DNA of 64,000 nucleotides from Blasia pusilla (GCA_050084515.1 CM114271.1:31186001-31250000), one strand, 5' to 3'; numbered from the stretch's first letter, positions 8,759-60,399 are shown. Notes: generated by a model not told the origin, from the sequence alone. A program made the numbers and translations.

Positions 8759-8766
<8 letters not shown>

Positions 8767-8806
<40 letters not shown>
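8767..8806. repeat. (TC)n microsatellite
   Basis: Read directly; followed by a short (GA)n. Confidence 0.95.
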
Positions 8807-8809
<3 letters not shown>

Positions 8810-8820
8810 AGAGAGAGAGA

Positions 8821-9071
8821 GCGGTAGATGACCAAGAGGTTAGCTGAACAAACATAAGGTCCTCTTGAAGAGGTCTTGGGTTCAACTCTCCCCTTGGATA
8901 GTGGGGGGCGGTCTCAACCCGAGGGCAGTGGCGTCCCCTACCTAGGACATGGATGGTCCATGTTCAAGAGAGAGAACGCCTTGTGTGCCTTGACTATGCT
9001 CCCAGGTTAAAAATCTGGATAAAATTCCAGACCTTCACAAAAGAAAAATACAGAAAAAAAAATACAAAAAA
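8821..9071 (+). mobile_element. Probable tRNA-derived SINE inserted in the leader of copy C
   Basis: A-box-like TGACCAAGAGG (8829-8839), B-box-like GGTTCAACTC (8879-8888), A-rich tail ~9038-9071. Confidence 0.5.
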
Positions 9072-9330
9072 CCAAATCTCCTGAGTGAGAACCCCAAATC
9101 TAGATGTGAAGGTGCCATGTCGGATGCGATGTCAATTTCACATATGTGGAAGGGGTCCCATAAGCCAGATCGGCTTCCCGTGGACTACAAATCTACTCCA
9201 CTCTACTCTCTCTCTCTCTCCAAACCCACTCTCCTAATGAGAGGCTTGGATTACACACACAAGGCAAGGAGGATCATAGCTCCGCCACGTGTCTCATGCC
9301 AAGAGGTTCAACAAAGAGAGAATGAGCTCT

Positions 9331-9436
<106 letters not shown>

Positions 9437-21299: not shown

Positions 21300-22210
21300 C
21301 CGAGGTACTCTCTCTCCCCAAGCCCTCTCCTCATTGATCTATGCATGGATGTCATCTCCTTGACCTTAAACTTGCAATAGTGGGTGAATTTTTTTTTCTA
21401 CAAATATAAAATTAACTCTCTTAAAACAAGGAACTTACTCAACATACAAAGACCTTCAAGTAAACTCCAAATGACCCAAACCAATGAAACTTGCACTTGT
21501 AGATTACCCTACTCCTTAGCACCCCATACTTGGCCTACCATGCTAAACCTATGATCTCTCTTGAGGGTGTTGAGTGGATACTTTCTATTCCACTATGAAA
21601 GATATGAAAGTTTTGTACGTATACATATTACTGCACAACATATATTGTTGTCACTAAGCAAACATAAAAAGCACTTACACAATACATTCGACCATTGAAT
21701 CCAAACGTGATATGGATGATAAGATCATCCATATCACTTGAGCAACTCTAAATGTCTAGCTCCTATTCTATTTACATTTAGGGCATATCCATTGTCCTAA
21801 GAGACTCTAGCAAGAGATGGCGTTAAACATATCATTGCCATCATGTTGAACATCGATCATAAATTAGCATTGTGGTTGCACCGCTCTTGTAGATCCATAG
21901 AATATATATTGCAAGCCTACATATACCATTACCAAGGTTGAATCGATCACTATACCATCAATGTTTGAAAGGTGACATGGCGCACAATTATGCATGTAGT
22001 CCTTCTAAAAATCATCACACCCTTGTAATACCAGAATACCAAATGACCAAACCTATTGTAGGTTGGATGGAACATCCAAAGTCATCCGCATCGTCTATTG
22101 CAAGTAGACACAATCCCAATAGATTCTCTAGATTAGTGGTTGCAATGGAGACTCTGGATTGTTGTTTGATGGTCTTCTCCCCAAATAGTCACATACCTCA
22201 TTATATCCTG
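21300..22210 (-). mobile_element. Highly decayed 3' fragment of the same group (copy D): partial X, Y, PHD and integrase C-terminus
   Basis: 21300-21520 resembles X; ~21610-21690 resembles Y. Minus-strand remnants: GATTMLIYDRCS...LGQWICPKCK*, HNCAPCHLSNIDG, GDCVYLQ*TMRMTLDV. Confidence 0.7.
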
Positions 22211-24030: not shown

Positions 24031-24916
24031 ATTTACTCAATGAATTTTCAATATTGGAACATTGAGAATACTTACGACTTGGCTTTCACAAAGTATACTC
24101 ATATATATCTAGAGAAGTCATCAATAAATGAAATAAAATACTGGAAACCACTAAGGCTATGTTGTGATGTTATCCACATATTATTCTCAACTCCAATATC
24201 TTGGATGTTCTTGTAACTTGCTTTAGAAATGGAAATCTAGCTTTTTTTTCTAAATTGGCAAATAAGAAATATTTCCAGCATAGCAGGACTTGATTAGGAA
24301 TTCTTATTACTAGATTAGATGATGAAAGACTATGTAATCTTTGAAGATTTATATGCCCAATTCTCTTATGCCATACATTGAGATCCGTGACTTATTGGCC
24401 AATTTAAGCTTACATTTCTGTTTGAATCTCTAACATACAAACATCTAATTTGAACATTATACTGGATCTTGTTCCTTTGGCTATCATAGTCCGATCATCC
24501 ATTGCAAGGATGCACATGGACAAAGTCCATGTCAATGCCGTCTCGGGTATCTGCGGCTCACATCCGAGCCTGCCTAGAGCGTACCCAAAGCCCTTTGCGT
24601 AGACCTAGGCTAATAGAGCTCGTACCCATTGCGTGGCCCGCCAAGGCCGTGCGTGGATTTAGGATATCAAATAGAAATCAAATTTCTTGCGATTATGGTA
24701 GGAACATAGAGAACATTTCCAAGAGCATATAAACCATCTAATTCTATTAGGACTTTACTGGTATGCATGATATAATATTGAGTATGATCTACTATGAGGG
24801 TTGTTGTATGATCTTTCACAAGCTCTATTTTGCTAAACCATTTAGCTTGTGAGATCATATGATTTACAAGGTTGCACACGAATAAATTTCGTGTCAACGA
24901 AAATATCCGGGTCCGT

Positions 24917-26192
24917 TGTCGTATAGTAAAATCAGCCAGTGTGTAAACTCCTTCCTTGTTAAGTGTTAGATAGAGTTTTATTAGTATTAAGTAAATTATC
25001 TTAGGAAAAGGAAATCCCCATGTTTAAACCTCTTTATGGTGCCTCTTTTATGCAGGCCCAACTTTAGAAAAGAGGTAATAAATAAAAGATGACTTTATAA
25101 AAGTAAAGTAGTGAGGTTGGTGCTTTAATGAAAAGCAAAAGTAGGCTTGGTTGGTGGCTAGGTTAGTTGGGGTAATTTGGAAAATATCAAGTGGATAAAA
25201 GAGGATATTTTGGAAAAGATAAGAGGAAATCTACTTGTGTCAAAATATGATTGGCTAAGCCTTGAGAGGAAGCCATGTGGCACAAGATAAGATTCGCTCT
25301 ATTTCGTACTCTTGTGGGTCTCTTGTGAGTATATAAAGAGGAGGGACCTTCAAGGGTTCATCACCTTCTATTCCACATCTTGAGTCTTTCGTGTCACTCT
25401 TGAGTGTATGACTTTGGGATTGCTTGCTCTTCCAATGAGAGTGGATCATCCCTCTTGGAGAGTAACTTGACCATGGTCTATTTTTCGAGAGGTTTCTAGA
25501 GTATGGTATGTGTGTGGAGATGAGAGGTTTGTCACCTTAGAGGAGTTTAGTCATACTAAAATAGTTAATGTTTTGGCTTATTACTTCCCCAATGAGAGTG
25601 GATTACCTCTCTTGGGAGAATAACTCCGCAAAAACCCATTCTTGAGGAGAGTAGAGAATGTCTGTCAAACATGGATAGGGGTGGAGCACGAGTTATGCCC
25701 AACTTTCCTTTCCTCAATCCATACCATGTCAAGATACTCTTTGTAGATAGGCACTCGTTCACTCGCTATTTAGTTTATCACTTTGGGGAGGCGTTCATGA
25801 ACCAGGTCATTCAATCTCCAACTCCGGTGATCCTTCCTATCGTCATATATGGAAGGACATGGGATTGTACTTTGTATGTCCTTATATAGCAATCAATGGA
25901 CGTCAATAGGCCTGCTCAAGTAGGGTTTAATACTGGTTGTGCTATCTTCTTCGTATACAATTGTAAAATAGTTTATAGGGATTTTATAGTTAGGAATTTC
26001 GGGGTCCGATGTTACGAAGAAGTGATCGCCTCGGCACTTCCATTTGTGATACCTGTCGTGAGAGAATGGAGAGTATACATAATAATTTTATATTGAAAAA
26101 TGAGATCTTCTCAGAGAATTTATCTTGCATCGACCGCATCTGCCGCAGCTACAAGGCCTGCCCTTACTCGAAGAAAGGCTCTCGACACGACA
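24917..26192 (+). mobile_element. Solo-LTR-like element, ~1.28 kb, copy 1
   Basis: Termini TGTCGT...ACGACA; 4-bp TSD CCGT (24913-24916, 26193-26196); inverted near-copy at 35318-36595. Strand assignment is only relative. Confidence 0.9.
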
Positions 26193-27589
26193 CCGTTCCT
26201 AGGACAAACAAGTTCGTGTAGGCACGGATACATGCGTTCCGCACTTGAGCCCGCCCTGCCCCGCTCATAACGTACACCTAGGCTCGGCCAACCCGCATCT
26301 TGTCTCAAAATCCATCGTCCGTCTTGTAGCCCGTACCGACCCACGCTAAGTTGGCATTGGTAAGCGGTAGTTCCCCATAGGGTAGGTTGGGGCCCTCCTT
26401 GTGCGGGCATGTTGCGGACCGATGCGAGCAAAGTGCGGGCCGATTCGTGTCCATCTCCCTTAATCTAAGCTTGCACATGTTCTCGCGCCCCGAGCTTGCT
26501 TGGGTCATGGGGATGCTGGTAGCCCCCAATCCAATTACAACCCCAAAGTAAACATAGATGGGGTGGTTCACGTAGAAATCCTAGGTCAGCAAAGGATTGA
26601 TCGAGCTATGCGAGCGTGGCTGGTCCGTTTCATTGACATGTACGATTGAGGCGACTTTATTTATGAAACTGCCATAGATCTCAACGGTTGAATCCACAAG
26701 AAGTTCGAGATGCCTTCAACAAAACTTGACAACTTGTGCTAAACCATCATCAAAATCCATTAGTGGATGACCTTGTCTTGCAGAGACTTGAATTGATCTT
26801 GCCACCTTTCTTATGGCAAGATATTCCTCAAAGGATGGAAGGGGGATTTCTCGAACATACCATTATCCTTGTCGAATGCAGGAGGAACTCTTTGGATTCT
26901 TCGAGTGAGATTGGGAGATGTTTCCAATACAGCCAACACAAGAAACAGATGATGGTGAAGCCGATGTTGAGTTGGAGAGGACTATTCCTCGTCTGATGAT
27001 GTATCAGATTAGATAAAATGAGTTCATATTTATATCTTTGTAATATACATAAGTATACTCTTCCTCTCAATCCATATGTTTTGTGGGGTATCACCCTTTT
27101 TGGTAGAAAATATTTCAAAAGGTTACTTGAAAATGGTTTATTTGTTTATAGTTTATGGATTGGCATTAGAGGCAATCTACTACAAAGAGTTGAGAATCAC
27201 CATATGCTCTCGGGGACGTCACCTGAGGATATTAGCATTTCATGAGAGTAGGAAGAAAGTGGTTTTTTAATTTTAAAAAGAGGCAAATTATAATTAACCA
27301 ATTAGTTGCGAAAGGGCTTGAAAAAAAAAAAAAAAAAGGTCCTATTATAATATAGGGTCCAAATAATTGGTAGACCTATACAAATAATTAAAAACTACTA
27401 TAGGGAACTCGATATCCCATGTTGCAACGTTTTCATCATTAAGTATACATTATTTTATCATTTTCTTATTGATCATGATAAAATAAATATAAGAATATAG
27501 GAATAAATATAAAATCATCATTAAGTATACAATAACATCATCTATAAACAATCCATTTTTTTACTATATAAGTAATTGTAGTATATGGA

Positions 27590-33439: not shown

Positions 33440-36400
33440 TATGGTGCGCATACACATTGCTACACAACATACATCGCTGTCGACAAACATACACACACAC
33501 ACACACACGCGTGATCCCATGCTAACTCATGGCATCCAAACAATGAGACAAGAAGTACCAAAATATCTCTATTAAATCAACATCCAATCTCTCTCAACAG
33601 CATAGCTCTCAAATGTGTGCATTCTCACATGTCTCTCTCAATGTCAAACCAAACCCACTCTTCTAATGAGAGGCTTGGGTTACACACACAAGGCAAGCAA
33701 GACCATAGCTCCGCCGCCTCATGCCAAGAGGTTCAACAAAGAGAGAATGATCTCCCAAGCTCTCTGTCCTTAAGGTATACTCCCTTCCCTCTCCCAACCT
33801 CTCTCTCCTCGGTAACCTATGTTTGTAGGTCACCTCCTTGGCTCTTGACCTGTTGTAGCGGGTCAAGGGCCACTTCCAAAAGGGGAAAGTAAACTCTACC
33901 AAATATAGAAACTTACCCAAAATAGCAAGTTTCTTTATATGGCTCCAATGAGCCAAAACGAAGGGGAAACTTGCTCTCTCAAGTTTCCCGAGACCTCAGT
34001 AGGTCATCCTCGACCTCTTGAGCCTGTCCTCCTCTACTTGTGAAGGCGCTCTACCAGATCTCTCCGATCTATCCTAAAATATCTGGACAACTATCGTGAG
34101 CATATACATCGCTACATAACATACATCGCCGTCGACAAACATACACACACACATGCACGATCCCATGCTAACTCATGGCATCCAAAAAATCAGACAAGAA
34201 GTACCAAAATATCTCCAATCCCTCCCCTAACTGGTGGTTACGTCCCTCTAACTCCTGATAGCCATCTATCCCTATCTACTATGACACACATCTCTCGGAC
34301 GCTAAGAGCAAAAAAGCTGGGTGCTCGTGTGGCCCCATCGTTAGTCGCCTTCTTGTCAGCCATGTCACAGACACAAGTCGGAATGTAGAACTACCGACTC
34401 TATGTACATCTGGGATACATCCATCGTCCCTTTGGAACCCTAGTGAGAGGTGGCGTCAGACATGCCATATGCCATCGTCTTGAACATCCATCACAGACTA
34501 GCATAGTGGCTGCACCACGGGCATAACCACACAACATACACCGCAAGGCTGTAGGAACTACTTCTAAGCTCAGATCAATTGTACCTTCAATGTTTGGAAG
34601 ATGACATAGCGCACAATTACGCACATGGTCCTTTCAAACCATACCATCGTGTACCTCCAAAAAGAGAATACTAGATGGAAAAATCTCACGCACTCTCAAG
34701 ATGGTGCACCGTGCAGTCACAACCAACGTCGTAGGTGCCGTGTGCTGCAAGTAGACATAGTCTCCCTAATGAAACCTCCGGATAGTAGGTCGATAACCAA
34801 CTCCTCGAATAGTCTTATACCTCAATGTATCTCGATGCTACGCAATCGCCAAGTTCTCAAATGCCATGGGCATCACTCTCCAAAACAACTTAGCCCTCTT
34901 AGAATATGCTCGTATCCATACATCAGGGTCATCAAGGTTCAACACCTCACCAACATCTTGACGAATGGCTGTAGGTAAATTTGGCTCTCGGCCATACAAA
35001 AGCAACTACAGTGAGAAAGACCCTAAGGATGCATGCTTGCTAAATCTGTATCCCATCGCCAACCAGGGCAACTGGAGGTCCCAATATCCTAGGTGACCTC
35101 TCTCTAAGCCATACTTGCGTAATCCTCTCTTCACCGTCTGCACAACCCGCTCCGCTAGTCCATCTGCCTCAAGATGATCTCGCAAAGTAGTGCAATGGTT
35201 GATCAGCGTCTGATCATACAAGGCCTGAAACTCCCCGCAAAACTCTGTGCCTTGGTCTATCAACACCTAAGTTAATGTGCCATAATGACTCAATACTTGA
35301 TCAAGGAAGGCCTACGCTGTCGTGTCGAGAGTCTTTCTTCGAGTAAGGGCAGGCCTTCTAGCTGCGTCACACGTGATCCATGCAAGGTGAACTCTCTAAG
35401 AAGTTCTCTTTTTTCAATATAAAATTATTATGTATACTCTCCATTCTCTCACGACAGGTATCACAGATGGAAGTGCCGAGGTAATCACTTCTTCGTAGCA
35501 TTGGACCCCAAAATTCCTAACTTTAAAATCCCTATAAACTACTTTACGCTTGTACACAAGAAAGATAGCCTAACTAGTGTTAAACCCTACTTGAGAAGAC
35601 CTATTAGCGTCCATGGATAACTATATAAGGACATACAAAGTACAATCCCATGTCCTTCCATATGTGACAATAGGAAGAATCACCGGAGTTGGAGATTGCA
35701 TGACCTGGTTCATGAATGCCTCCCCAAAGTGATAAACTAAATAGCGAGTGAACCAATGCCTATCTACAAAGAATACCTTGACATGGTATGGATTGAGGAA
35801 AGAAAAGTAGGGCACAACTCGTGCTCCATCCCTATCCATGCTTGATAGACATTCTCTACTCTCCTCAAGAATGAGTTTTGAAGGAATTTTTCTCCCAAGA
35901 GGGGTAATCCACTCTCATTGGGAAAGTAACAAGCCAAAACATTCACTATTTTAGTATGACTAAACTCCTCTAAGGTGACAAGCCTCTCATCTCCACACAC
36001 ACATCATACTCTAGAAACCTCTTGAAGAATAGAGCATGGTCAAGTTACTCTCAGAAGAGGGATGATCCACTCTTATTGGAAGAGCAAGAAATCCCCAAGC
36101 CATACATTCAAGAGTGACATGAGAGACTCAAGATGTGGAATAGAAGGTGATGAACTCGTAGAGGTCCCTCCTCTTTATATACTCACAAGGGTTCCACAAG
36201 AGTACGAAATAGAGCTAATCTTATCTTGTGCCACATGGCTTCCTCTCAAGGCTTAGCCAATCACATTTTGATACAAGTAGATTTCCTCTTATCTTTTCCC
36301 AAATATCATCTTTTACCCACTTGATATTTTCCAAATTACCCCAACTAACATAGCCACCAACCAAGACTACTTTTGCTTTTCATTAAAGCACCAACCTCAC

Positions 36401-38598
36401 TAGTTTACTTTTATAAAGTTATCTTTTATTTATTATCTCTTTTCCTATAGTTGGGTCCGCATAAAAGAGGCACCATAAAGAGGTTTAAACATGGGAATTT
36501 CGTTTTCCTAAGCTAATTTACTTAATACTAATAAAACTCTATCTAACACTTAATGAGGAAGGAGTTTACACACTGGCTGATTTTACTATACTACAACGCT
36601 ACTCCCTCACGTGCTTTGTCAGGCAATGCAACCAACTTTATCCACTTTGAGAAGTGCTCGACCATCACCAACACATAACGACTAGGGCGCTCGGTCAAAG
36701 GCAAAGGTCCTCCAAAGTCCAAACTCCATCTATAACCTAAACCCATGATCGGAAGTCGATGCAACTATAGAGTCCGAGCATTGAACAATGCTCGAACTTG
36801 ATCACACACCATGTATCTAGCAACAAATTGTTGAACGTAAGTCTGTATGCCTCGCCACCAATACTGTATTTGGAGCAAGCTATATGTCCGCTTCACTCCA
36901 AAATGACCCAACTCCTTGTGGGCATGACGCACCAAATGAACTCTGTGGGAAGGATGAGGCACCATCCACACTCTACCATCCTCCCATACTGACGATGTTC
37001 AAACCTCCTTGGTGCACGGTGCGGGTTTGATGGTACGGTGCGGCACGGAACGGCTACAATGGCATAGCACTCGGAAATGGGGTACGGCACTCAACGACAT
37101 ATCCTCCTTAATCAACAAACATTATCGGCTCACGATGATGGTACGGCTTGGCGATCGAGACGGTGCGGTGCAGCCACAAACAACACGACGCAGCAATCGG
37201 CGGCGCGTTGCAGCATGGGCGTCACGGCACGGTACCCAATCATCGTCGAGCGGCTATCTCCTCATGGCATAGCCAAGCGGAAAAGAAACTACAACCCCAT
37301 CACTCCAAAAAGCAGGTTACATACCGTTACTGGCAAAGCACTGGCCGGAAATTGTGTGGTGACAACGGCAGATTTGTTGTAGATGATGTGGACGCACCGT
37401 TGAGTGTAGAATGGCCGTCAATTGACTAACGGAATCCGTCAACGATGTCAGACGGGCATGGATGGCCATCTAACAGATGGCAGCATGGGATCTGGACGTG
37501 GCAGGTACGTGGTCGGACCATGATTGAGCCGAAGGCAGTAGCTCAGACAGTTCGAATGCGGTTAGCGTTCAGCGTCGAGCACTGGCAAGTCGTGAGGCGG
37601 CAGCTTAACTGTCAGCAGTAGGTCATGACGGGGTCAGCTTCAGGAGCCGCGTGGCCGGGATGAAGTCTGGCTAGGCCGCTTATTGGCGGTTCTTCTTGCT
37701 GAACCAACAACGCAAACTACGATAGTAGCAAGAGATCTCGACGACGCAGATTAACCATGTTTTTCTTTGAATTTCAACACGGATAGTCGGGGAAGTCGCG
37801 AGTGGTACGTGCTAGGAACGCCGGCTTCACAACCAAAAATGGCCAAACGGCGAACCGCGTTGGCAGTTTGGTCGGCGGCTCAGCACGGAATGCGGGTCGC
37901 GGTAGGACTGGCTACAACGGGGAAGCGGTAGTAGCAGGGCGGCAGGACCCGGAAAGTAGGATAGTTACGGCAAGGAGTCGGCTATGGCTAGCCGTGACTG
38001 TGCGGCTGGCGATGCTCGGGTGGATACCTATGGTGGCAGAGCTAGTCGAAACGAAAAATGACAATAGGCAGGGTCGACGGCAGTCTAGGGATGGGAAAGT
38101 GCGGCTAAGGAAGGCTGCCAATCAAGATCCAATCTCTCTCAACACCATAACTCTCAAATGTGTGCACTCTCACATGTCTCTCTCAATGTCAAACCAAACC
38201 CACTCTCCTAATGAGAGGCTTGGGTTACACACACAAGGCAAGCAAGACCATAGCTCCGCCGCCTCATGCCAAGAGGTTCAACAAAGAGAGAATGGGCTCC
38301 CAAACTCTCTATCCTTGAGGTATACTCCCTTCCCTCTCCCAACCTCTCTCTCCTCGGTAACCTATGCGGATCAAGGGCCACTTCCAAAAGGGGAAAGTCA
38401 ACTCTACCAAATATGAAAGCTTACCCAAAATAGCAAGTTTCTCTATATGGCTCCAAATGAGCCGAAACGAAGGGGAAACCTGCTCTCTCAGGTTTCCAGG
38501 GATCTCAGTAGGTCATCCTTGACCTCTTGAGCCTATCCTCCTTTACTCGCAAAGGTGCTCTACCAGATCTCTCCGATCTATTCTAAAATATCGTGACA
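33440..38598 (-). mobile_element. Internally deleted member of the same split-repeat Ty3 group (copy B): leader plus INT-PHD only
   Basis: 4-bp TSD TACC (33436-33439, 38599-38602). Repeats: Y2 33440-33569, X2 ~33575-34089, spacer ac, Y1 34092-34215, PPT-like ttaggggagggattg (minus) 34216-34230, X1 ~38120-38598. PHD ORF 34400-34624; integrase pieces 34630-35317 and 36596-36990. 37000-37300 is homologous to the leader at 7680-7935. Confidence 0.9.
35318..36595 (-). mobile_element. Solo-LTR-like element, ~1.28 kb, copy 2, inserted in the integrase of copy B
   Basis: TG..CA termini; 4-bp TSD ACGC (35314-35317, 36596-36599); integrase sequence is continuous across the insertion. Confidence 0.9.
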
Positions 38599-38602
38599 TA
38601 CC

Positions 38603-41532
38603 AGACAAGTTGAGAGAAGTATTGGAGGAATATAAAGATGTATTCCCAAATGATTTACCATCAAGGTTACCACCCAAACTGAGGATAGACCATAAGATTG
38701 ACGTCCTTCCAAGAAGCACACCACCATGTAAGGCTCCTTATTGCTTAGCTCCAAGGGAATTAGAAGAATGCAAAGCCCAAGTGGAGGAGAAAGGCTTTAT
38801 CCAACCAAGCGTCTCGCCATATGGAGCCCCTGTTCTTTTCGTGAGAAAGAAGGATGGAAGCATGCGACTGTGTATCGAAAATTAAGCACTGAATCAACAA
38901 ACAATAAAAAATAAATATCCATTATCAAGAATGGATGATTTGTTTGCTTGCTACAAGGAGTAAAATACTTCACCAAACTTGACCTTAGAAGCGGCTACAA
39001 CCAAATTTGAATTGCGGATGAAGACTGCTCTTCGTACTAGGTATAGACATTTTGAATACTTAGTCATGCCATTTGGTCTTACTAATACACCTGTAACCTT
39101 TATGGGCCTAATGAATGATATCTTTCATCCATATTTAGAAAATTTTGTCATTGTATTCTTAGATGATATCTTAGTCTATAGTAAAACCATAGATGAGCAT
39201 ATAAATCATCTACGAGAAGTCCTTCAAATCATAAGAGATAATGAGTTGTATGCTAAAGCTTAAAAATGTGAGTTCGGTTAGACATAAGTTGATTATATAG
39301 GGCATCTTGTAAGCACATAAGGTATCAAGTAATGAATGAGAAGGTAGAAGCGATCCAAAAATAGAGTGCATCTGAGGATCAAACTCAATTGAAGATTTTT
39401 CTAAGATAAACATGATTCTATCGAAGATTTGTCAAAGGTTTTGCTCAAATTGTATAATCCTTGGCGGCTTTACTAGGGAAAGGACAAAAGTGGAATTGGG
39501 GCACATCACAAGAGATTTCTTTTCAATCATTAAAGGATGTCTTAATCAAAGTCCCTATTTTGAAGTGGTATGATCCTAATCGACCCATCAATTTTTCCAT
39601 AGATGCTTCAGGTACTAGCATTGGAGGAGTACTACAAGAAGAATGAGAAGATGGATGGCATCATATTGCCTTTGTTTCTTGCAAGCTATTGCCAATGGAG
39701 CAAAAATACCATACAACTAAATGAGAAGAACTTGATAGTGTGTTGATAACCAAGCATTGGAAACATTACTTGGGCGATAAGGAGTCTGTGATGGAGATTG
39801 ATCACAAGCCCTTGGTCTACTTAGAGTCCCAAAAGGAGCTCTCCAAACGCCAAATTCAATGCACAGAATGGCGATAATAATTCACCATGAAAATTTTCTA
39901 TGTGGAAGGAAAGAAGCAGTTGGCGGACGCCCTAACTTGTATACCACAGATGAATAACATGTCTGAAATGGAGATTCACTCTGGTTGGTGGAAACAGTTA
40001 TCCATAGCCAGAAAGGAGGATGAAGAAATTTTAATTGCTATTCAAGCCAACAAAGTACACAAGGCTCAAGGATTTACTTTCCATAAAGCTAAAGTATCGA
40101 TCCCACAAGATCCACATTTACGCACTCACGTATTGTCTAAAGCTCACGACATAGTCATTGTCGGTCATATGGGAGTTGAAAAAACCTTAGAGGGATTACA
40201 ATGGGAATACTATTGGCCCAAAATGAGAGAATATGTTGACATATATGTAAGGAGTTGTAGGATTTGTTAACAAATCAAGGCTAGTAACACAAAACTAGCA
40301 AGATTGTTACAGCCCATCCCAACACCTAAAAAATGTTGGGAACAAGTCACTATGTATCTGGTTTATGAGCTACCATGTACGATCACAGGATATGACTCTA
40401 TTGTAGTCTTTGTGGATAGACTAAGCAAGATGATACACCTTCATTCGATCAAGAAGAGTGTGATTGCATCAGAGTTGGCTAGGATCTACCTCAAGACAGT
40501 CTTTTTCCATCATGGTCTTCCTGAAGTGCTTATCATTGATACGGGAACCCAATTTATCATTAATAGGGGTTGAAAAAACCTTAGAGGGATTACAATGGGG
40601 ATACTATTGGCCCAAAATGAGAGAATATGTTGACCCATTTCACGAGTTTATTTTGGAAGGCTTTATTCGGATTGCTCCAAACTAAACTAGCCATATCTAC
40701 GGCTTATCATCCTCAAATTGATGGACAAACTGAAAGGGCCAACCCTACCATTGAGGATATGCTACGTGCCTTAACATTGGAGGATCAACAAGGATGAGTT
40801 TCATTATTACCCTTAGTAGAGTTCTCATACAATAACTCCATGAACTCTTCCACTAAGGCCATATTGCTCTTTTTAATGCATGGCGAGCATCCCTTAATTC
40901 CTTCTAGTCTCACTCGAATAGGGAAAAGTATGAGGGAACCTACAAAGATAGTTGCAATTAATGAGTTTTTGGACCAGATTCAGAAAGGGGTTCAACTTGC
41001 TAAGGAAAAGTTGTCTTTTGCCCAAAATCGACGAAAAAAAATGGAGATGCTCATCGTTGAGATATTGAGTTTTTTGAAGGGGACAAGTTTTGGTTAGCAA
41101 CAACCAATTTATCATTAAGAGGATTTTGTAAGCTTAATCGTTGCTATATTGGGCTTTTTACTATCCTACAAAAAATGGGCGTCGTGGCGTATAAGCTAGA
41201 TCTACGGATGCATATGAAAATCCATCATGTATTTCCTATCTCTCTTCTTTGACCGTTTATTCCACGCTATAAGAGATTTGAGGATAATATTGTCACTCCA
41301 CCACTACCTGAAATATTCGGAGATCATGAAGAATTTGAAGTGGAATGTATCTTGAAGAAACACACTCAAGGAGCTCATCACCAACGAGTTGAATACTTGG
41401 TCCAATGGAAAGGATATCCACTATTTGAGGTACATGGAAATCCTCAGCGAAACTTGGCCAACACACCATTAATAATGCAAGAGTTTGAAAGTTCTCACAA
41501 CGAGGACTTTGTATCTTAAATGGGGGGAGGCT
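38603..41532 (+). mobile_element. Ty3/gypsy chromovirus pol (RT-RH-INT-chromodomain), decayed
   Basis: [63 protein letters not shown]; chromodomain EEFEVECIL...EYLVQWKGY at ~41328-41430; PPT ggggggagg before the LTR. Confidence 0.93.
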
Positions 41533-50357: not shown

Positions 50358-51242
50358 ATTTGCCACGGTGGATCTCATAATTGAGCAATGGAGCTAATCT
50401 TAACGTGCAAAAACCTACAGAATTAAGAAATATAAAAGTAGGAATATAGAAGGGCAAGTTAGGAAGACGTCTTCCTAGAGAACTACATGTGTCGTGCGAA
50501 TCCACATCGTCATACAACATACATCGCTGACATACCATACTCACATACATACATAACATAGACGAGAGCATCCACAAACACAAGAGTACCACAACTGAAA
50601 TCCGTGAAAGACCTACATCATAAAACACGTATAGAAGCACATACAATCGAGCCAAACCCACTCCACGATGGGAGAATCTAGGTCGAAGCTTGCGGGAAAC
50701 ACCATAGCCAAGAGCTCTACTCACTACCAAGGCTAACTCCCAACGCAACAGGCTCAACTCAAAGAACAGACTGTTCTTTGAGTGCACTCCATCTTATATC
50801 CTCCAACCTAAGAGCGGGCCCTCTTGGAAAACTCTCCCTCAAATGAGTGACACCCAACCCTATGTATGAAATCGCATCTCTACCAAAACACTACGGCCCT
50901 ACATAAGGTATGGCCTCTACTAGCACACTATACTCTACGACATAATCCCTATGGTCATGACAGCTGTCGTGCGAATCCACATCGTCATACAACATACATC
51001 GCTGACATACCATACTCACATACATATATAACATAGACGAGAGCATCCACAAACACAAGTGTATCACAACTCGCCCCCTTAGTGGCGGTTAGGTCCCTCT
51101 AATTCCCAGGTAGCCCTATACATCTACTACATGCTATACACCTTCTTGGGTGCATGAATCAGAAGGCCGGGTGCTAGGTTGCCCCATCGTTAGTCGCACA
51201 TCTGTAATCCATATCATGCAAAGATCAAGTCATCTACCTCTC

Positions 51243-52560
51243 CTAAGTACATCGAGGACAAACCCACCTTCCAATAGGAAAAATATCCATACGTGGAGTC
51301 AAACACATCATGTGCCAACCCCTAGAACACCGATCACACACCAACATACGGGCTGCGTTACCAGCAGACCCACACAACATGCACCTCAAGCTAGCACGTA
51401 TCATGGCTAAGCTTGGGTCAACAGTACCATCCACATTTGGAAGATGATATGGCGCACAATTACGCACATGGTCCTTCCAAACAACTCCATCACGACCCTC
51501 CAACATGAGAACTCCAGAAGCTAACACCTCGCGCACTCGTAAAATAGTACAGCCTGCCGTCACATCCAACGTTGTCGGTGCAATCTGCTGCAAATAGACA
51601 TAGTCTCCCACATGGAACCTACAAATCGATGGTCGAAAACCTCCACCCCGAATGGTTGCATACCGAAACGTATCCCTGTGTTGAGCAATGGCAAGATTCT
51701 CAAAGGCTGTTGGCATCACTCTCCGAAAGAGCTCTGCCCACTGAGAACACACTCTCATCCACATCTCTGGGTCATCAAGGTTCACCACCTCACTAGAATC
51801 CCGACAAATTGCTGCTGGCAAGTCTGGATCTCGGCCGTATAACAGAAAATAAGGTGAGAAGGAAGCCAAGGATGCTTGGCGACTGAACCTATACCCCATG
51901 GCAACTGAATATCCCAGTCTCCAAGATGCCCCTTATGTAGGCCATACTTACGCAATGCCCTCTTCACCGTCTGAACCACACGCTCAGCCAAACCATCCGC
52001 CTCTGGATGATCTCGAGACGTGGTCCGATGATCAATCAACGCCTTGTCACACAAGACCTGAAACTCACCCTGAAACTCTGTACCCTGGTCGGTCAGAACT
52101 TCAGCTGGTGTACCAAAATGACTAAGCACTCTATCAAGAAACGCATACGCCATTCCCTCACTTTCCTTGTCCGGTAATGTCACCAACTCAATCCACTTGG
52201 AGAAGTGCTCCACCATCACCAACACATATCGATGATGTTGTACAGTTTACGGTAACGGTCCCGCAAAGTCCACACTCCAACGGTAACCCAACCCCATAAT
52301 AGGCAAGGGGTGTAATTGTGGTGTAGGGGCATTGAATGATGCCCTCACCCGGTCACAAACCATATAACGTGACACCAACTTCTGCACCTGAGTATGCATG
52401 CCACGCCACCAATACTGGCCAAGGAGTAAGCTATACCCCAAAATGTTCCAACTCCTCATGGGCATGTCATACAATGCGCTCTCTCTGAGCCAAATGCGGC
52501 ACTACTCGTACTCTACCATCCTCCCACACACGGAGAATATGTGTTCCCTCCAATCGATAC
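51243..52560 (-). pseudogene. DDE integrase with C-terminal PHD finger, copy A (frameshifted)
   Basis: YWWRGM...CDRV zinc-binding region; core VDFAGP, TDQGTEF, GLAERVVQTVK; PHD CMLC-x11-CDRC-x3-WHMMC-x12-WVCPRC (C4HC3) at ~51246-51390. Confidence 0.92.
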
Positions 52561-52799
52561 CTCTTAGCACGTTGAAGAACACGGTCTCGCTCCTTGGCAC
52601 TCACTATGCCTGGCACCCTACTGGTCCATAGGAACTCCAATACCAACGCATCATCATGAATATCACGCTGATCCGTACCACCATCTCCAACCTTAGGATC
52701 TGAAGGCTGGCCATCTACCCTCTGACTAGAGTAAGATATCATGTGGTCCTCCATACTAGAGTCCACCCCTAACCAACATAAAAGGGTGGATGCATGCCA

Positions 52800-54332
52800 A
52801 CCTGGCACCATCTCCTCATCAACCTCGCCATGCCATCTAGCCCCAGTTGTATCCTCTTGGCTAGTACATGGGTTCCTACTCAACCCATCAGCATCAAGGT
52901 TGGCAACTCCGGGTCCATGTACCACCTGGAAGTCATATTCCTGTAAGATAAGAGCCACCGTGCAAGCTTCCCTGTAAGCTTGTCAGACTCCATCAACCAC
53001 TTGAGCGGCTGGTGATCAGTAACAAGGGTAAACTGTGTGCCAAACAAGTAACACCTAAAGTGTGCCCACTGCCCACACTCTTGCCAAGCACTCTCCTTCA
53101 TATGAACTATAGCGCGACTCCGCTGCATTATTCGAACGACTTGCATAGGCCACCACAAACTCCATGTGCTCATCATCATGTTGTGTCAACACCGCTCCAA
53201 GTCCCAACCTACTCCAATCAGTGTGTAACTGAAATGGGCGCCCTCTGATATGTCTCCTCAAGATAGGCGCCGCCACCAACTGGGCCTTAAGCTCCACAAA
53301 AGCTCTCTCCTCATCATCTCCCCAATGCCACTCTTGATCTGATTTCAGAAATTGGTTCAAAGGCTTTGCCATAGCCCTAAATCCCTTCACATACCTCTGA
53401 TAGTATTTCGCCAATCCCATGAATGCTCGAACTCTACTCACATCTACCGGACGCGGAATAAGTGCAATAGCCTCCACCTTTGCTTGCTGAACTCCCAAAC
53501 CACCTAGATAGATCACATGACCCAAGTACTCAACATCCTCATGGAAGAACTTACACTTTCTTGGATGCAAACGTAGACCATGAGCTTTCAACCGCTCAAA
53601 CACCATCTGCAAATGTATCTGATGCTCCTCCACCGTGTTACTGAACACCAAGATATCATCAATGTAACACCAAACAAAATCCAGCCCTGCTAGGATCCTG
53701 TCCATCACTCTCTGAAACTCGGCAGGTGCATTCTTCAACCCAAAGGGTAAGAATTTCCACTGGTACAAACAATCCTTGCCATGAGAGTTGACACCCCAAA
53801 ATGCTGCCTTGGCCTTGTCACTCTCGAATCGGCAATTGATGGTATCTCGCCAAGATCAAATACTGAAAATCTTTGCCTGTCCCACCACATCAAAGATCTC
53901 CTCAGGTATAGGCATGGCATACCTATCGGCCTTGGTTTGCCGATTGATAGGAAGATAATCTCCATACATCCGCCTATCCATGTAGTTGCCATGCATATCC
54001 TTTTTAGCAAGCATGACAGTGGCTGATGCATACTCTCCATGCAAAAACTCCACTAATCCAGCCTCCAAAAGGTCCAACGTCCTACTCTGAATCAGGTCCC
54101 TCTCCATATCACTATATCGGTAGGGACGACGGAAGATTGGCGTATCACTAGCCAAATCAATCCGTATACCGGGTCCAACCAGAGAACCCAACTCCTTCAT
54201 GCTAAAGGCAAAACAACTCCTATAAGCACGTAGGAACCGTGTCAGCCGTTTCTCACCTCCCGTAAGCTTGGGCCCAAGTAATGGCTCCCAAGTCTCCTCC
54301 ACTGGCACACTAGAGGGAGAGGACAATGCCAT
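52800..54332 (-). pseudogene. Reverse transcriptase and RNase H of copy A (frameshifted)
   Basis: PIFRRPYRYS, LPFGLKNAPAEFQRVMD, YIDD; RNase H HTDWS, YEGECLA, TDHQPL, DADGLSR, spread over several frames. Confidence 0.95.
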
Positions 54333-54338
54333 TGGCTG

Positions 54339-56399
54339 CTACGCAACCCCCTCACAAGATGGTAAACCCTTAGCTACACCATCATCTGAGCAAATAACTC
54401 CTCCACCAGCATGAGCAACCAACTCCACATGCCCAGCCATTACATCCCATTTACTCCAAGGATGCAAAATACTACTCTCCTCACCCCCAGCCGATGCCTC
54501 TACCGTCCCGGTAGCCATCGAGCTCAATACAAGGGGTGGAAGACCCATAGACATAGTCCAAAGTCGACGCTGCTCGGCCATACCAAGACTCAAAATCCAA
54601 GTCAAACAATTCAGGTCCATGGCCTGACCCAACACATGACGTCGTGAAGCCTCAGAAATGGAAGCAACCGTTGTCACACCAGTAGCAAATCCCATCGCAT
54701 GCTCTCTCTCATCAGCGTTAGGCTCCACCAACTGTCGCACATGAGAATCCCATACAAGCCCGGGACCACCGTCCCTGTATGCATGTGACGAGGGAAAACT
54801 CACAAATGTGGGTAGTGCCATCCTAGGCTGGCCCATACGGTTCACCACTGCCATGGGTGACCGATCAATAACCCTCACCATCTGAGAAAGTCGCCTAGTA
54901 TCCGAGATACTATCCACTGTAAAGCAAGGATCCCGCTGCACTGCATCATATGCTCGACGTAGAACCTCCCTAGGCAACAAGTTTGTCCACCACAAGCGTG
55001 GACGATGTGCACGCGAGCCAACTCGCGCTGCATCCAACAACACCGCTGGTCCAATCCAAGACCGCACCTCATGAACACTCGCCATCATCCGGGTCCGAGT
55101 GTCACCCAACAATGGAACATTCTCCAGAATGTAAGCTAGAGCACGTGCCTGATGAACCTGAAGATGTCGTAACACCCGTAACATCTCCCAAAACAATCGA
55201 GACCTAGGGTCCTGTAATCCCTCACCATGACCAGCACATGTATGACCTTGACATGGCCATCCAGCAATCACTAAATCCACAGGACCAACCCTCTCAAGGT
55301 CCTGCGCCCCCAACAATGCAATGTGTGATGGCAAAGCACGCTGGTACCCATGAATAGCTGATGGCGGCAACAACTCAGGATATCTCCACATCAACTGACC
55401 AATATGTCGGGATGAGACTCTCTGGGCCGTCTCATCTCGCTCCACATACACGTATCTCCGCACAAGAATACCGACCTGCAACACTACAGCCAAACTAGTG
55501 CTAATCCCACCAAAGAGATCTAACACACAAATGCCCTCCGGCGGATACTGCCATACAATGGGTGTAGTATCCAAAGGGGATAATCCAAGTGGACCAGAAG
55601 TAGGAGTCTGCCGTGGGGCCTCCTCTTCCTCGTGATGTATAACAGCCTCACACCAAGCCTCTTGCACTAGGCGATCAGCCTCCTGCCGTAGTGCACCGCC
55701 TGAACTCCAAAGTGGCACATCCAACGATGAGGATGCCACTGCTGCAAAAATAGGGACCTCCTCTACCTCCTCATGCGCAAGAGAATCCATAGCAGAAACA
55801 TTACCCTCCAAAAAGTCTCCTGGCCAAGTGACTACTCCACTAAAACCAGCCACAGATGCTAACACTATTGGGGAAGACCCACCTGGTCGAGCCCCATAAA
55901 TAAATCTCACAAGAACTTGGCTCATACGTCCATCCCCGGACTGCCAACCAGGTCTATAAGACGCTGTCTCAGTCCAGTAATCCATCTCAAAACCCATCGG
56001 GTACAATATTGCTCCTCCAACTAGTACATCATACGACTCGGCTGATGTGACTACCGCATATACTCCTAACCGGGAGCTATCAGTCGCATGATCTGGTCTC
56101 AACTGTACAGAAAACTTCTCCCGTGTCATGAATTGAGACCTATCATTGGCTCCTCCAAGTGATGTTTGAATCTGGAATGGGCAAGGCTCAAGCTTTGACC
56201 TCCGAATATCCAAACCAATACATGCCGCCTTTCCCAACATCAAAGGTTGGGCACCAGAGTCTAACAAGACTCTATCTGGTCTGTACACCTGTCCTGTAGG
56301 ACTCACCAATCGGAATATCCCACTCCGGTTGTCCAACATACATACACCAGGTGTAAGCCTCTCACGATCAATGGCTGGCCGGGCTAGTAATGCATCCAT
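54339..56399 (-). CDS. Pol segment: aspartic protease plus DNMT3-like C5 cytosine DNA methyltransferase domain (~54570-55540)
   Basis: Uninterrupted 686-aa frame. Protease: VLLDSGAQP...DVLVGG. MTase motifs in canonical order: I VLDLFGGIS, II YVERDE, IV DLVIAGWPCQG (catalytic PC), VI YILENVP, VIII DAARVGSRAHRPRLWWTNL, IX EREHAMGF, X LGQAMD. This is part of a polyprotein, so the listed Met is not a proven start. Confidence 0.92.
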   Translation of the reverse strand: MDALLARPAIDRERLTPGVCMLDNRSGIFRLVSPTGQVYRPDRVLLDSGAQPLMLGKAACIGLDIRRSKLEPCPFQIQTSLGGANDRSQFMTREKFSVQLRPDHATDSSRLGVYAVVTSAESYDVLVGGAILYPMGFEMDYWTETASYRPGWQSGDGRMSQVLVRFIYGARPGGSSPIVLASVAGFSGVVTWPGDFLEGNVSAMDSLAHEEVEEVPIFAAVASSSLDVPLWSSGGALRQEADRLVQEAWCEAVIHHEEEEAPRQTPTSGPLGLSPLDTTPIVWQYPPEGICVLDLFGGISTSLAVVLQVGILVRRYVYVERDETAQRVSSRHIGQLMWRYPELLPPSAIHGYQRALPSHIALLGAQDLERVGPVDLVIAGWPCQGHTCAGHGEGLQDPRSRLFWEMLRVLRHLQVHQARALAYILENVPLLGDTRTRMMASVHEVRSWIGPAVLLDAARVGSRAHRPRLWWTNLLPREVLRRAYDAVQRDPCFTVDSISDTRRLSQMVRVIDRSPMAVVNRMGQPRMALPTFVSFPSSHAYRDGGPGLVWDSHVRQLVEPNADEREHAMGFATGVTTVASISEASRRHVLGQAMDLNCLTWILSLGMAEQRRLWTMSMGLPPLVLSSMATGTVEASAGGEESSILHPWSKWDVMAGHVELVAHAGGGVICSDDGVAKGLPSCEGVA

Positions 56400-56847
56400 C
56401 TTCGCATTTCGCCGCCGCTAAGTAGCACTGGTACTCAATGCTACACTTGACATAGAGGGTCGCTCCACCGCAACACCCTCATCCACCTCAAAGACGTGTA
56501 GCAAGAACACCCCACGTTCACACAACGTGGTCGCTAGCTGAAATACAGGAGCTAAGTCAACTCCTAAAGGCATCGCTCGTGGCCGAAAACAATGGGGATC
56601 CCAACACCGAAGTTGCCATCCGCACATCTTTTGCCTTTGGATGTTGCATCCATGTCTACTACACACGATGTAGATGCCTGAGTCCCCACTGTCGGCTCAA
56701 TAGGCTGTGTAGGAACCATGGATAGAGTCCTAAGCACCTCAGACAACAAGAATGACTAGGGAAGCCTAGCCTGCCTCCCAGCCTCACCCCTATGTGGGTC
56801 CAACTCCACTGTAGCACCACGTGGCTCTGACGCTCGAGTAGCTCCTC

Positions 56848-58418
56848 TCATAACTGCAGCTGATGCCTCAACCTGTGCTGCACTCGCCATATAAGAGAGA
56901 TCATCCCCTCCATAAGAGGTGGAAGCCCCTGCTCCCAAACCGATCTATCTTTGGATACCAACCATAGTAGCCAACCTCGCTCCAATCTGCTCAATCTTGG
57001 CGACCATAGCGACTGTCGAGTGATAGGGGTAGCCACCGTAGGCTCTCCAACCACTGGTCCACCTCTATCATCCCTACCGCCTCTACCATCTCGGCCTCTC
57101 GGAGCTACTCCACCACGGCCGTGGCCTGATCTCAACTCTCGATGAAGATCAAAGCAACGCTCTCGAGGATGACATGGTCTCCCGCAATGATCACACTGAG
57201 TTGGGGCCGAGTGAGGCCCATCCTCCAAAGTCCGTCTCCTATCCTCTTGGGGACAAAACTTCCTAACATGATCACGTCCACATGTCCAACATGATTGTCC
57301 TTGCTGCGGGGCAGCAAATAAAGGCAATGGTCTTTGCGCAAGTATCCCTCTAGGACCTGACTGAGGTCGTGTGTACCCCCCACGACTCCCACTACTACTA
57401 CCACCACCACTACTACGAGACGTGAGGTGGGCTGCTGAACACGAGAAGTAGTAGTTGTATCCCTACTGAATGCGGATGTCACCACTCTCTCCTTCACCAT
57501 GTTAAGCTCAATCTTCTGAGATAGAGCAAACACATGGGTCAATGTGGGTGAATCATCACTCATAAGAGTAGCATCACGTATCCTACGGCGCAAGTCTCTG
57601 TCCAAGATCCCATACCAAAACTGGACTGCCTTAGCCTCAGTCACACCCTAGGTAACTGAAATCAAGCGTCCCATACGAGTGTATGCCTCACGAAGACTCT
57701 CACCAGTCTTTCGCTCAAATTCCTGAAGACTCCTCAACTTCTCTGTCTTCACTCCCTGATAGTTCTTCTTCAACCTCTTGAAGAACTCTACATCCGGGCT
57801 GAACGATGGTGGGGCACTAGTACCTCCACTAGTACCCCCACTAGTACCTCCATGGGTACCTCCACTGGTACCCCCACTCCGGCTCGTACTCGTACCACTC
57901 AACCTTGGGCTGGCTGGCATAGTAGGAGCACTACTACCAATACCACCATGGGTGATAGACACATATCCTGGAGACCAATATTGTCTCCACGCCTCAATCT
58001 GAGCAACATGGTCCTTCCTAAACTCATGGTATTCATCCATGGGTGGTCCTTCCAAGTGCTGAAACAACCCCTTCCAAGCCAAGAAGGGTGTAAACAACGT
58101 AGCGTTCCGCAACATCTGCATATCACACCACGTATCAAACTCCTGCATGAAGTCCTCCAACTCAATGGTGCCCACTACACCCGAGTATCGTCGTGGGCCC
58201 TTCATGGCCCCATATATCCCGTCCATGTTCCAAATCAATGGAGCTGCAACACTCGATAACAACGTAGAAGACTCGGTGTTTGGAACACCCTCATCCTCCT
58301 CGTCATCAACCGTCGGAAGTGGAAAAGGTAGCTGATACCTAAATCCACTTCGTGTGAAACCACCACTGTCCGCACCACGGTCCCCAACCACACCACCCGA
58401 GAGCTCCGTGATGACCAA
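56848..58418 (-). pseudogene. gag of copy A with two zinc knuckles (in-frame stop and frameshift)
   Basis: Gag-like ERKTGESLREAYTRM; in-frame TAG at 57648-57650; knuckles CWTCGRDHVRKFC and CDHCGRPCHPRERC followed by an RGG-rich tract; SGGT repeats at ~57815-57880. Confidence 0.85.
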
Positions 58419-59891
58419 CGCCGATGCCGCACCACCACCAAATTACCACCACCAACTAACCAAGTGACGTCGATGTCGCTATACTATTCTAGCTCTACTA
58501 GCTATGGGTGTAGGCAACCTAACCTGTCATCACCACAAGAAGCCTCCCACGGTCTACTGGTCATCACTCCAACATCACTATCGGTAGCACACAAGAGTAA
58601 CACTACTATGGAAATCAGCGTCAATCCTAACAATGGGCGCGCAAGCAAGAAGCAACGATGGAGGGGATCCAAACACAGGAAGTCCAACGAAAATCCTCCA
58701 ATCGCAAATGGAAATCAAGGTAACACAATCCACCAAACGTGGTGCCCCTTGAATCCACAAAACCCACCACACAATTCTAACGCAATAGCTACTCCGCCGC
58801 GGGTCGATGACGTGCTAGTCGAACTCGCAGCACTTGAAAATATCACCTGCATGGAGAGGCTACACCGTACTATGCGCTAGAGGTAAATTGACCAAAACCC
58901 TGAGATGCATAAAGCGCCTAATACATCTCCGAACAGCACCAAATGAGCTACAACACTGTGTACACTGGCATAGTTAAGAACTCAGCAGTTAAGCGTCCTC
59001 CAGGTACAATAGTCCAAAGATGGATGACCAATTATGCAACACTCAAATCACAAATCCTGCAAAATTTGCCTCACGCCCAAGCACTTGCTCCTTGCTCCTT
59101 ACTCCGCCTCTCACGCCCACTTGCCCTGAGCTAGTCCGCAAAATTTCGATCAGCAATTACTTCACAAATCTATGACCAAAATCAAATTTGTTTCAACCAG
59201 ATTCAATGGACCACCATAGCTATCTCTCCACAAAAAATCAGCTACAACCGAGCTCTGTACTCCGAGCTAAAAATCAGACAAACTTGCTGTCCATACACCT
59301 TCAGAATTGCGAATCCGACAACGCTTCCGCCAAGTTTCATGCATGCAGAAATTCACAACGCTCCACACACTCGAGCATATAGCTTCACATGAGATCACAA
59401 TACAAGTAGCAACAGGAACCTCTCACCCGATCTGGATGAACTTCAAGAGAGCTTCCGCACTCCAAGCTCTCCACATCAGAAAACCGTCGAACATGAACCA
59501 GAATCTTCAATCCTTGATAACTTCCAACTCCATTAACAAAATTCGGCGATCTAAAGCACGTTGGAAAGCTCTCAGCAAGGTGCTTCTCTCCCAACCAACC
59601 ACGCACCAGATTCACACTTCCAACATAGGCCACAAGCCACGAACATCCACGGCTGAGTACACAATCAGCCCTAACCAGATCCTACTGATCCACAATCGAT
59701 CTACTCCAGTTCTTTGAGTGAAATCCGTGAAAGACCTACTGTCATAAAACACGTATAGAATCACATAATATCAAGCCAAACCCACTCCAGGATGGGAGAA
59801 TCTAGGTCGAAGCTTGCGGGAAACACCATAGCCAAGAGCTCTACTCACTACCAAGGCTAACTCCTAACGCAACAGGCTCAACTCAAAGAAC

Positions 59892-59922
59892 TGATTGTTC
59901 TTTGAGTGCACTCCACCTTATA
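59892..59922 (-). promoter_or_regulatory. Putative core promoter in X1: TATA box and initiator
   Basis: Minus-strand TATAA at 59922-59918 and TCAGTT Inr-like motif with its A at 59892, 30 nt downstream. Confidence 0.6.
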
Positions 59923-60399
59923 TCCTCCAACCTAAGAGCGGGCCCTACTGGAAAACTCTCCCTCAACTAAGTAACCCCCAACCCTATGTATGAAATCGCA
60001 TCTCTACCTAAACACTGCGGCCCTACATAAGGTATGGCCTCTACTAGCACACTATACTCTACGACATAATCCGTATGGTTATGACACATGACTTATAATA
60101 ACCAAAATTTTTTCATGTGAGTGTGTTGGCGGGAAGTGTAAGGCCGGCGTGACCAAGAGAAGAAACTAAACAAAAATGCACTCCTCTCAATACCAATCGA
60201 GGGATGAGTTTTTTTAAAGGAATGATCTATCAGCAGATACAAAAGTGGCTCTTCATAATAACTTACTTGAGATGCAATTTGAATCCACGTTATTTTGATT
60301 TAAACCTCTCCAATTGTAAATTGCATGTTAGTGGCCTCCGTTCCTCTAATATGAGTTTCCTAATAGAAATTGTGCAGCTCTTAATCTTGGTGTAATTCT

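Follow-up and report, generated by a model that had tools for sequence, protein, structure and literature searches.

De Mendoza et al. (2018) described KnitGypsy-Dnmt3, from Klebsormidium nitens, as having DIRS-type repeats together with Gypsy domains (legend to Fig. 4c, PMC5890265), and the text of that article, as distinct from its figure and supplements, gives no target-site duplication (TSD), attachment (att) site, or mechanism for the element. A 2026 preprint contains a one-line mention of Gypsy-DNMT3, and these two were the only papers in which the family names were found. No other Gypsy case with split or permuted repeats, and no mechanism for one, was found in the literature searched, outside of which lie subscription journals, theses, Repbase, and supplements. 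Self-priming has been named for the Ty3 elements Tf1/Sushi and Tcn1 (PMC6317226). Here, a 64,000-nt stretch of DNA from the liverwort Blasia pusilla (GCA_050084515.1 CM114271.1:31186001-31250000), referred to as the window, was found to contain a decayed integrase-encoding element, E1 (50490-60086, minus strand), in which two repeats, X and Y, have the split order X..Y-X-Y. The anatomy of E1 points to an undescribed integration route for a long terminal repeat (LTR) retrotransposon, and it is best read, with fair probability, as the product of a 2-LTR circle formed by end joining, which integrase then opened at an att site inside the LTR. An earlier reading of the same sequence, the original prediction, had implied that the layout was novel; it is already in print (PMC5890265), whereas the mechanism and the anatomy that would explain it (a self-priming site, ends defined by the polypurine tract [PPT], fused ends, an att palindrome, and TSDs) were not found in print in the literature searched.

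On the minus strand, the order in E1 is X1, gag, protease (PR), DNMT3, reverse transcriptase (RT), RNase H (RH), integrase (IN), PHD, PPT, Y1, GC, X2, and Y2. Self-BLAST aligned X1 (59719-60086) with X2 (50596-50962) at 94.3% identity over 368 nt, and Y1 (50965-51071) with Y2 (50490-50596) at 97.2% identity over 107 nt. Because the X end, primer site, and Y start have a single A (59719/50596) in common, X is best bounded at 59720-60086 and 50597-50962. The flank junctions are CATG/TGTCA on the 5' side and CGACA/CATG on the 3' side, and the coordinates originally given for an X1-ORFs-PPT-Y1-GC-X2-Y2 layout (ORF, open reading frame) with a CATG TSD thus hold by both self-BLAST and flank reading. 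A Pfam scan of E1 gave matches to RVT_1, RT_RNaseH, Integrase_H2C2, rve, PHD, and C5 DNA methylase, the last of which was absent from the original account; the gag region (56851-58442) had no Pfam match. The best PDB match of the integrase core was Ty3 Gag-Pol (6.8e-07). A DDE integrase without a tyrosine recombinase (YR) ORF had been predicted, and no YR family was matched in the 30 stop-to-stop ORF pieces scanned, with four other ORFs of at least 80 amino acids in the coding region lying outside the scan. E1 has the PR-RT-RH-IN order of Ty3/Gypsy elements (with DNMT3 inserted between PR and RT, and the protease recognized by eye), a Ty3-type RT, and a DDE integrase and, as Ty3/Gypsy LTR elements do, a primer site, a PPT, TG..CA ends, and a 4-bp TSD. 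These TG..CA ends differ from the ends fixed by the primer site and PPT, and two identical flanking LTRs, as expected of Ty3/Gypsy elements, are not present in the X..Y-X-Y layout.

The split layout characterizes the family and did not arise by accident. Another, diverged member in the window, E2, shares the layout and has its own GGTA duplication, which makes chance or misassembly very unlikely; the joint chance of both 4-mer duplications (CATG in E1 and GGTA in E2) is about 1.2e-5. The C-terminal part of the E2 integrase is 66% identical to that of E1, and the X of E2 is not alignable to the X of E1. Further members came from a scan of metagenome contigs, in which the best 80 of 530 confirmed relatives were taken; 24 of these loci were informative or partly so, and the other 56 were outgroup elements, were too short, or had no recognizable Y. 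Loci with common flanks (L016/L018, L021/L022, and L042/L044, with L041 added by eye) represented the same insertion, and each such set was counted once; L002, L030, and L088, which are collapsed or circular assemblies, were excluded from the count of ends. E1, E2, and the merged metagenome loci gave 20 independent 3' ends, 14 with X-Y and 6 with PPT-Y directly before the flank, and the ordinary LTR end (PPT-Y-X, then flank) occurred in 0 of 20. The 14 X-Y ends comprised 11 complete PPT-Y-nn-X-Y ends (one of them, in L025, belonging to a separate copy on the opposite strand), 2 with a damaged Y2, and 1 that was deleted yet still ended X-Y before the flank. Only three 5' ends were readable (E1, E2, and L004); L004 is a complete X-internal-Y copy whose flanking duplication agrees at 3 of 4 bases, and no X1 was found upstream in the old metagenome copies, a profile search included. 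Joints of the X end with the Y start are present in contigs of one public DNA run (possibly the source of the window itself), the family being abundant at 244,070 contig records, and the X/Y join of another copy carries a one-base insertion. The original prediction had allowed that most copies might have ordinary LTR pairs, of which the 3' ends gave no example, or that the repeat block might be misassembled, against which E2 and the contigs with X/Y joints argue.

Two of these relatives have unusual structures of their own. In L042 (11058-15493) and L044 (5778-10217), a Y end is followed by 3.9 kb, X, a primer-site-like stretch, a deletion, and a Y end; ACATATG flanks the 3.9 kb on both sides, and this could be an insertion into an att palindrome or a second deleted copy. 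L088 (1-9285) was assembled as a circle with 127-bp identical ends within a record labelled as a cyanobacterial genome bin and is probably contaminating plant DNA or a collapsed repeat.

In Tf1-type priming, the primer site is complementary to the RNA's own 5' end, and no tRNA is used. The 13-nt stretch directly after X1 of E1 has its complement in X, at a site that lies about 32 nt past a TATA-like box, and none of 212 interior 40-nt windows had a complement of at least 12 nt. In the minimum-energy fold of an RNA begun at the predicted start, the first 12 nt are paired with the primer stretch; the overall fold z-score of -1.18 is not significant, and the terminal stem alone is relied on. Equivalent primer sites of 16 nt in L002, 13 nt in L088, and 10 nt in L004 each lie about 30 nt past a TATA-like box, and a two-base swap between L002 and L088 is present on both pairing partners, a compensatory change. 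In the control sequence after X2, the complement did not exceed 7 nt in 10 of 11 loci and was 10 nt long in the other. These features suggest that E1 is self-primed in the manner of Tf1. Since the self-priming site directly follows X1 and the PPT directly precedes Y1, the predicted right and left ends of the cDNA are the X end and the Y start, respectively, and the LTR of the cDNA would be Y-nn-X. X1/X2 identity stops at the primer site, and Y1/Y2 identity starts at most about 4 nt from the PPT in 12 of 12 loci examined (shifted by a deletion in L064). The ends so placed have no conserved TG..CA across the clade, and the left ends start AGTT, GGTT, or similar. The X2/Y2 join would then be the right end of the cDNA fused to its left end, with primer site and PPT both lost. 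A DNA hairpin, CTCAAAGAAC/GTTCTTTGAG, contains the predicted RNA start (59881-59905, minus strand) in its loop and 3' arm; L002, L004, L088, and the L005/L006 subfamily likewise have a hairpin at this position.

The internal join of Y1 and X2, given originally as CGACA-GC-TGTCA, was confirmed; it is a 10-bp perfect palindrome, GACAGCTGTC, and the sole GACAnnTGTC match in the window; the same palindrome also follows a PPT in L088 (RT 65% identical) and L030 (45%). The corresponding join in E2 is CACGATA-GT-TGTCCAG. At most three mismatches to CAYGACA-nn-TGTCRTG were found in the internal joins of 9 of 12 loci versus 45 of 2093 random windows, a lenient null since the motif was derived from the tested loci themselves; L005 was scored as a miss when the motif search took a spurious site (five mismatches). 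The best-fitting spacer was 2 nt, with 35 summed mismatches versus 53 to 70 for spacers of 0, 1, 3, and 4 nt. As judged by sequence, the integrated ends are the two halves of the internal join, and neither integrated end of E1 or E2 retains the 2-nt spacer. If both strands of CA-nn-TG are cut after CA, in a staggered fashion, the result is processed ends of the kind inserted by a retroviral-type integrase, which would explain the missing spacer. The 4-bp duplications of E1 and E2 differ from each other and from the spacer, and none of the duplications (CATG, GGTA, and GGTA/AGTA) conforms to the NCGN target preference (Phygy clade, REXdb). Divergence within each copy was similar for the X pair and the Y pair (20/366 versus 3/107 in E1, p=0.32; 32/478 versus 10/124 in E2, p=0.56), as expected if all four repeats were made in one cycle. 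The Y-gc-X composition originally proposed for the cDNA LTR is therefore supported by the self-priming site, the alignment of Y identity with the PPT, the conserved join and spacer, and the lack of ordinary ends among the 20.

The observed layout, duplications, domains, and conserved joins could all arise if transcription began some 30 nt downstream of the TATA box of X1, as known LTR biology would suggest, and the RNA folded back such that its first 12 to 13 nt primed the minus strand at the X1 end, as in Tf1, while the PPT primed the plus strand where Y begins. Ordinary reverse transcription would then give a linear Y-gc-X-internal-Y-gc-X, whose true ends would not be att sites and would be joined end to end into a 2-LTR circle, creating the X/Y join. 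Within one LTR, integrase would make a cut staggered by 2 nt at the near-palindrome CA^nn-TG; both resulting ends would have a 3'-CA and a 2-nt 5' overhang, as processed retroviral ends do, and insertion with a 4-bp duplication and loss of the spacer in repair would produce X-internal-Y-nn-X-Y. A 1-LTR circle, or later recombination between Y1 and Y2, would yield X-internal-Y, the form seen in L004. The cleavage of a palindromic 2-LTR junction described for HIV-1 integrase (PMC1905944, PMC4372172) counts as a precedent for this scheme.

RNA evidence came from about 6% of one raw RNA run, which gave 5420 reads at an identity of at least 82%. Because only 107 of the 5420 were at least 99% alike, the reads stem from relatives. 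They cover the element and are strongly one-stranded; provided that the library was stranded in the usual way, they are in the element sense. In coarse bins of 325 nt, depth fell about 8-fold, from 132 just ahead of the PPT to 17 in the last bin (X2 end and Y2). Most RNA seems to stop before the X2/Y2 join, ending inside X2, in which case the X/Y join must be made anew in each cycle. Separately, 16 reads (10 starts) skip 987 nt of the RH-integrase region (51715-52703), with ends TC..TG on the plus strand, as a deleted copy or a splice would produce.

Several points weigh against the opening of a circle by integrase. The circularize-and-open scheme of the original prediction fits the anatomy, but the circle, the linear cDNA, and the cleavage are inferred rather than observed, and the RNA evidence is tempered by the coarse bins and by the small share of closely matching reads. 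Random opening of either LTR would be expected to give mirror-image X-Y-X-internal-Y copies as well, and none was present among the three readable 5' ends; the 6 of 20 PPT-Y ends could include such copies (p=0.12 against one half). No self-priming match was found in E2 or for the reversed X of L016. The X/Y joins are mostly tidy, as they would also be if inherited. At 59925, a short way upstream of the TATA-like box of X, 30 RNA molecules begin; taken as RNA 3' ends, they would be located 33 nt ahead of the predicted start and deprive that transcript of an R repeat, and they may represent a shorter mRNA, a diverged relative, or duplicates. Palindromes near the PPT of a distant locus, L053, did not exceed chance (17 of 190 null windows) and were rejected.

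The same integrase could act at an internal att site on ends that had been joined without a closed circle, by a template jump of the RT or in a head-to-tail cDNA dimer, and would then excise X-internal-Y-X-Y from the linear joined molecule. This is not very likely, given that end-to-end jumping by the Ty3 enzyme is reportedly only occasional whereas 2-LTR circles are ordinary by-products; it nevertheless accounts for every sequence feature counted for the circle, no feature here separates the two, and it could explain the single permutation at the three readable 5' ends. The one-base insertion at an X/Y join is compatible with either route of joining. An unlikely account is regeneration resembling that of PAT and Ngaro, in which RNA would run from X1 through X2 into Y2, the X/Y join would be inherited, and the internal Y-X would template the missing ends before integrase acted. 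PAT, Ngaro, and VIPER have this layout (PMC6681497), the X/Y joins are fairly constant inside a subfamily, and the RNA depth in the last bin is above zero, all of which such regeneration would accommodate; however, in X families that are unrelated to one another, the repeat borders fall at a covarying primer site and at the PPT; Y2 cannot be copied by a minus strand that is primed at the end of X1 and then transferred to X2; and the RNA depth is already about 8-fold lower before the end. Both of these accounts, like the opening of a circle, hold that a DDE integrase works on an att site located internally.

Integration by a YR supplied in trans, the DDE integrase being incidental, would suit the split direct repeats, which are otherwise associated with YR elements, but it is very improbable: the 30 ORF pieces scanned gave no YR match, the D-D-E triad is kept in 51 of 51 aligned relatives bearing PHD or DNMT, and the duplications vary by insertion and do not repeat the spacer, whereas DIRS ends are described as carrying the junction core on both sides (PMC7192593). 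That an ordinary LTR element was rearranged once, received a nested insertion, or was misassembled can scarcely be right. L002, L030, and L088 are assemblies unable to show the layout, which would leave room for this explanation, but it is largely refuted by E2 in the same window, by 12 further independent X-Y ends in other contigs, by the lack of ordinary ends (0 of 20), and by the case published for Klebsormidium.

Table 1. Features of E1 and E2, with positions counted from the first nucleotide of the window
Feature	Position	Strand	Remarks
E1: 4-bp TSD CATG, 5' side	60087-60090	-	
E1: X1, 5' terminal repeat	59720-60086	-	Begins TGTCA; promoter, start site, and U5; right-hand part of predicted cDNA LTR
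E1: putative TATA-like box	59917-59924	-	32 nt ahead of predicted RNA 5' end; spacing of about 30 nt also in L002, L004, and L088
E1: predicted first 12 nt of transcript (self-primer)	59881-59892	-	3' arm of small hairpin
E1: predicted self-priming primer-binding site	59707-59719	-	13 nt complementary to 59881-59893
E1: gag region	56851-58442	-	Several broken frames; CCHC-like motifs; named by position and motifs
E1: aspartic-protease-like motif (by eye) and DNMT3-like C5 cytosine methyltransferase	54342-56417	-	PF00145, 2.4e-09; best PDB matches DNMT3A, 5.5e-12
E1: RT and RH	52470-54338	-	Stops and frameshifts
E1: Ty3-type DDE integrase (H2C2, rve, D-34-E spacing) and C-terminal PHD finger	51246-52501	-	Split over three frames
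E1: PPT	51072-51080	-	Directly ahead of Y1
E1: Y1	50965-51071	-	Terminates CACGACA; left-hand part of predicted cDNA LTR
E1: internal att-like join CACGACA-GC-TGTCATG	50956-50971	-	2-nt spacer at 50963-50964
E1: X2	50597-50962	-	
E1: X2/Y2 join	50590-50603	-	Predicted cDNA right end fused to predicted left end; primer site and PPT both absent
E1: Y2, 3' terminal repeat	50490-50596	-	Terminates CACGACA
E1: 4-bp TSD CATG, 3' side	50486-50489	-	
E2: second member, internally deleted	33440-38598	-	Same layout; own GGTA duplication
E2: X1'	38120-38598	-	
E2: Y1'	34092-34219	-	Followed by GT spacer
E2: X2'	33574-34089	-	
E2: Y2'	33440-33573	-	

Other parts of the window also contain retroelement sequence. 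A third member, E3 (1403-9676, minus strand), is truncated at both ends and has an X like that of E2, with a long (GA)n run. The segment that interrupts the E2 integrase (35314-36598) has a 1.3-kb inverted copy at 24914-26196 (91.6%) and is probably a separate insertion. Another PHD-bearing integrase tail fragment is present at 21725-22115 (minus strand), and an unrelated Ty3-type RT fragment, 33 to 36% identical to E1, is present at 39051-39676 (plus strand). No tRNA genes were found in the window.

The proteins closest to those of E1 are from Marchantia, Calypogeia, and Sphagnum, followed by Klebsormidium and chlorophytes. In a quick tree, the RT of E1 fell in a 99-row clade with two K. nitens RTs (P0045 and P0046; SH-aLRT, 96), which were not identified as published KnitGypsy-Dnmt3 copies, and there was no Klebsormidium-labelled protein among the 96 DNMT-region matches listed. 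E1 is best explained as a copy of a bryophyte Ty3 retrotransposon of the DNMT3/PHD clade and is most likely a land-plant member of a kind already noted. All 51 aligned PHD- or DNMT-bearing integrases have D-34-E spacing; outside the clade, the spacing is 34 in 6 proteins and 35 in 15. The D-34-E of the E1 integrase (51785-52246, minus strand) is one residue below the usual D-35-E and is not unique to the clade. The DNMT3-like domain lies between protease and RT in E1 and after RT in the aquatic-metagenome relatives L027-L031 and L039, and matches in a viral collection were seven distant RTs.

LTR circles are generally viewed as dead ends or minor reserves. It is somewhat probable that an entire clade of integrase-encoding LTR retrotransposons, spanning green algae, mosses, and liverworts, has relocated its att sites: a single palindrome within the LTR would have taken over from the cDNA ends, and end-joined (circular) cDNA, elsewhere a side product, would have become the required substrate. 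If true, integration would have a third route, in addition to the linear one (Ty3, Ty1, and retroviruses) and the recombinase one (DIRS), reached by convergence on the DIRS-type layout. The anatomy of many independent copies indicates that, in this integrase-encoding family, joining of the ends and cutting at an internal site are the norm. The question of the circle as precursor becomes testable in a high-copy, transcribed plant family with Marchantia relatives. The route would also explain an oddity that has stood in a 2018 figure legend (PMC5890265), and LTR finders that demand paired TG..CA LTRs, as in the methods given in PMC6317226, will miss the clade or misplace its boundaries.

Among described systems, KnitGypsy-Dnmt3 shares with E1 its Gypsy domains, a DNMT3-like domain in Pol, and A-coding-B-A-B repeats "the same as that of a DIRS retrotransposon"; E1 is from a land plant, and the internal att palindrome, self-priming site, and PHD finger are features that the account in PMC5890265 does not describe for KnitGypsy-Dnmt3. 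Gypsy-7a_cRei of Chlamydomonas, a PHD-bearing and active element, has a left LTR that is 8 bp shorter than its right LTR (PMC9940879) and could have the same layout with a short Y. Tf1/Sushi and Tcn1 likewise have a primer site complementary to the RNA 5' end and use no tRNA (PMC6317226), but they have ordinary paired LTRs and chromodomains, whereas members of the clade of E1 carry a PHD finger and are placed away from proteins with chromodomains. PAT, Ngaro, VIPER, and TATE resemble E1 in their A1-coding-B1-A2-B2 order, an internal copy of the joined termini, and a proposed circle (PMC6681497, PMC7192593). These elements encode a YR, whereas E1 has a Ty3-type DDE integrase, a PPT, a primer site, and variable 4-bp duplications; YR retroelements repeat the junction core at their ends and have no integrase-type TSD, whereas E1 and E2 carry the duplications CATG and GGTA and lack the spacer at their ends. 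In the bacterial IS3, IS21, and IS30, a DDE enzyme acts on abutted ends with a 2- to 3-bp spacer in a circle, and these are DNA transposons without reverse transcription. Foamy virus integrase is said to cleave the 2-LTR circle junction. The HIV-1 integrase also cuts a palindromic junction in a 2-LTR circle before integrating, but its cut site is described as the U5-U3 join, in a side route leading to an ordinary provirus (PMC1905944, PMC4372172), whereas in E1 the cut would lie inside the LTR and the product would be permuted, by what is apparently the normal route.

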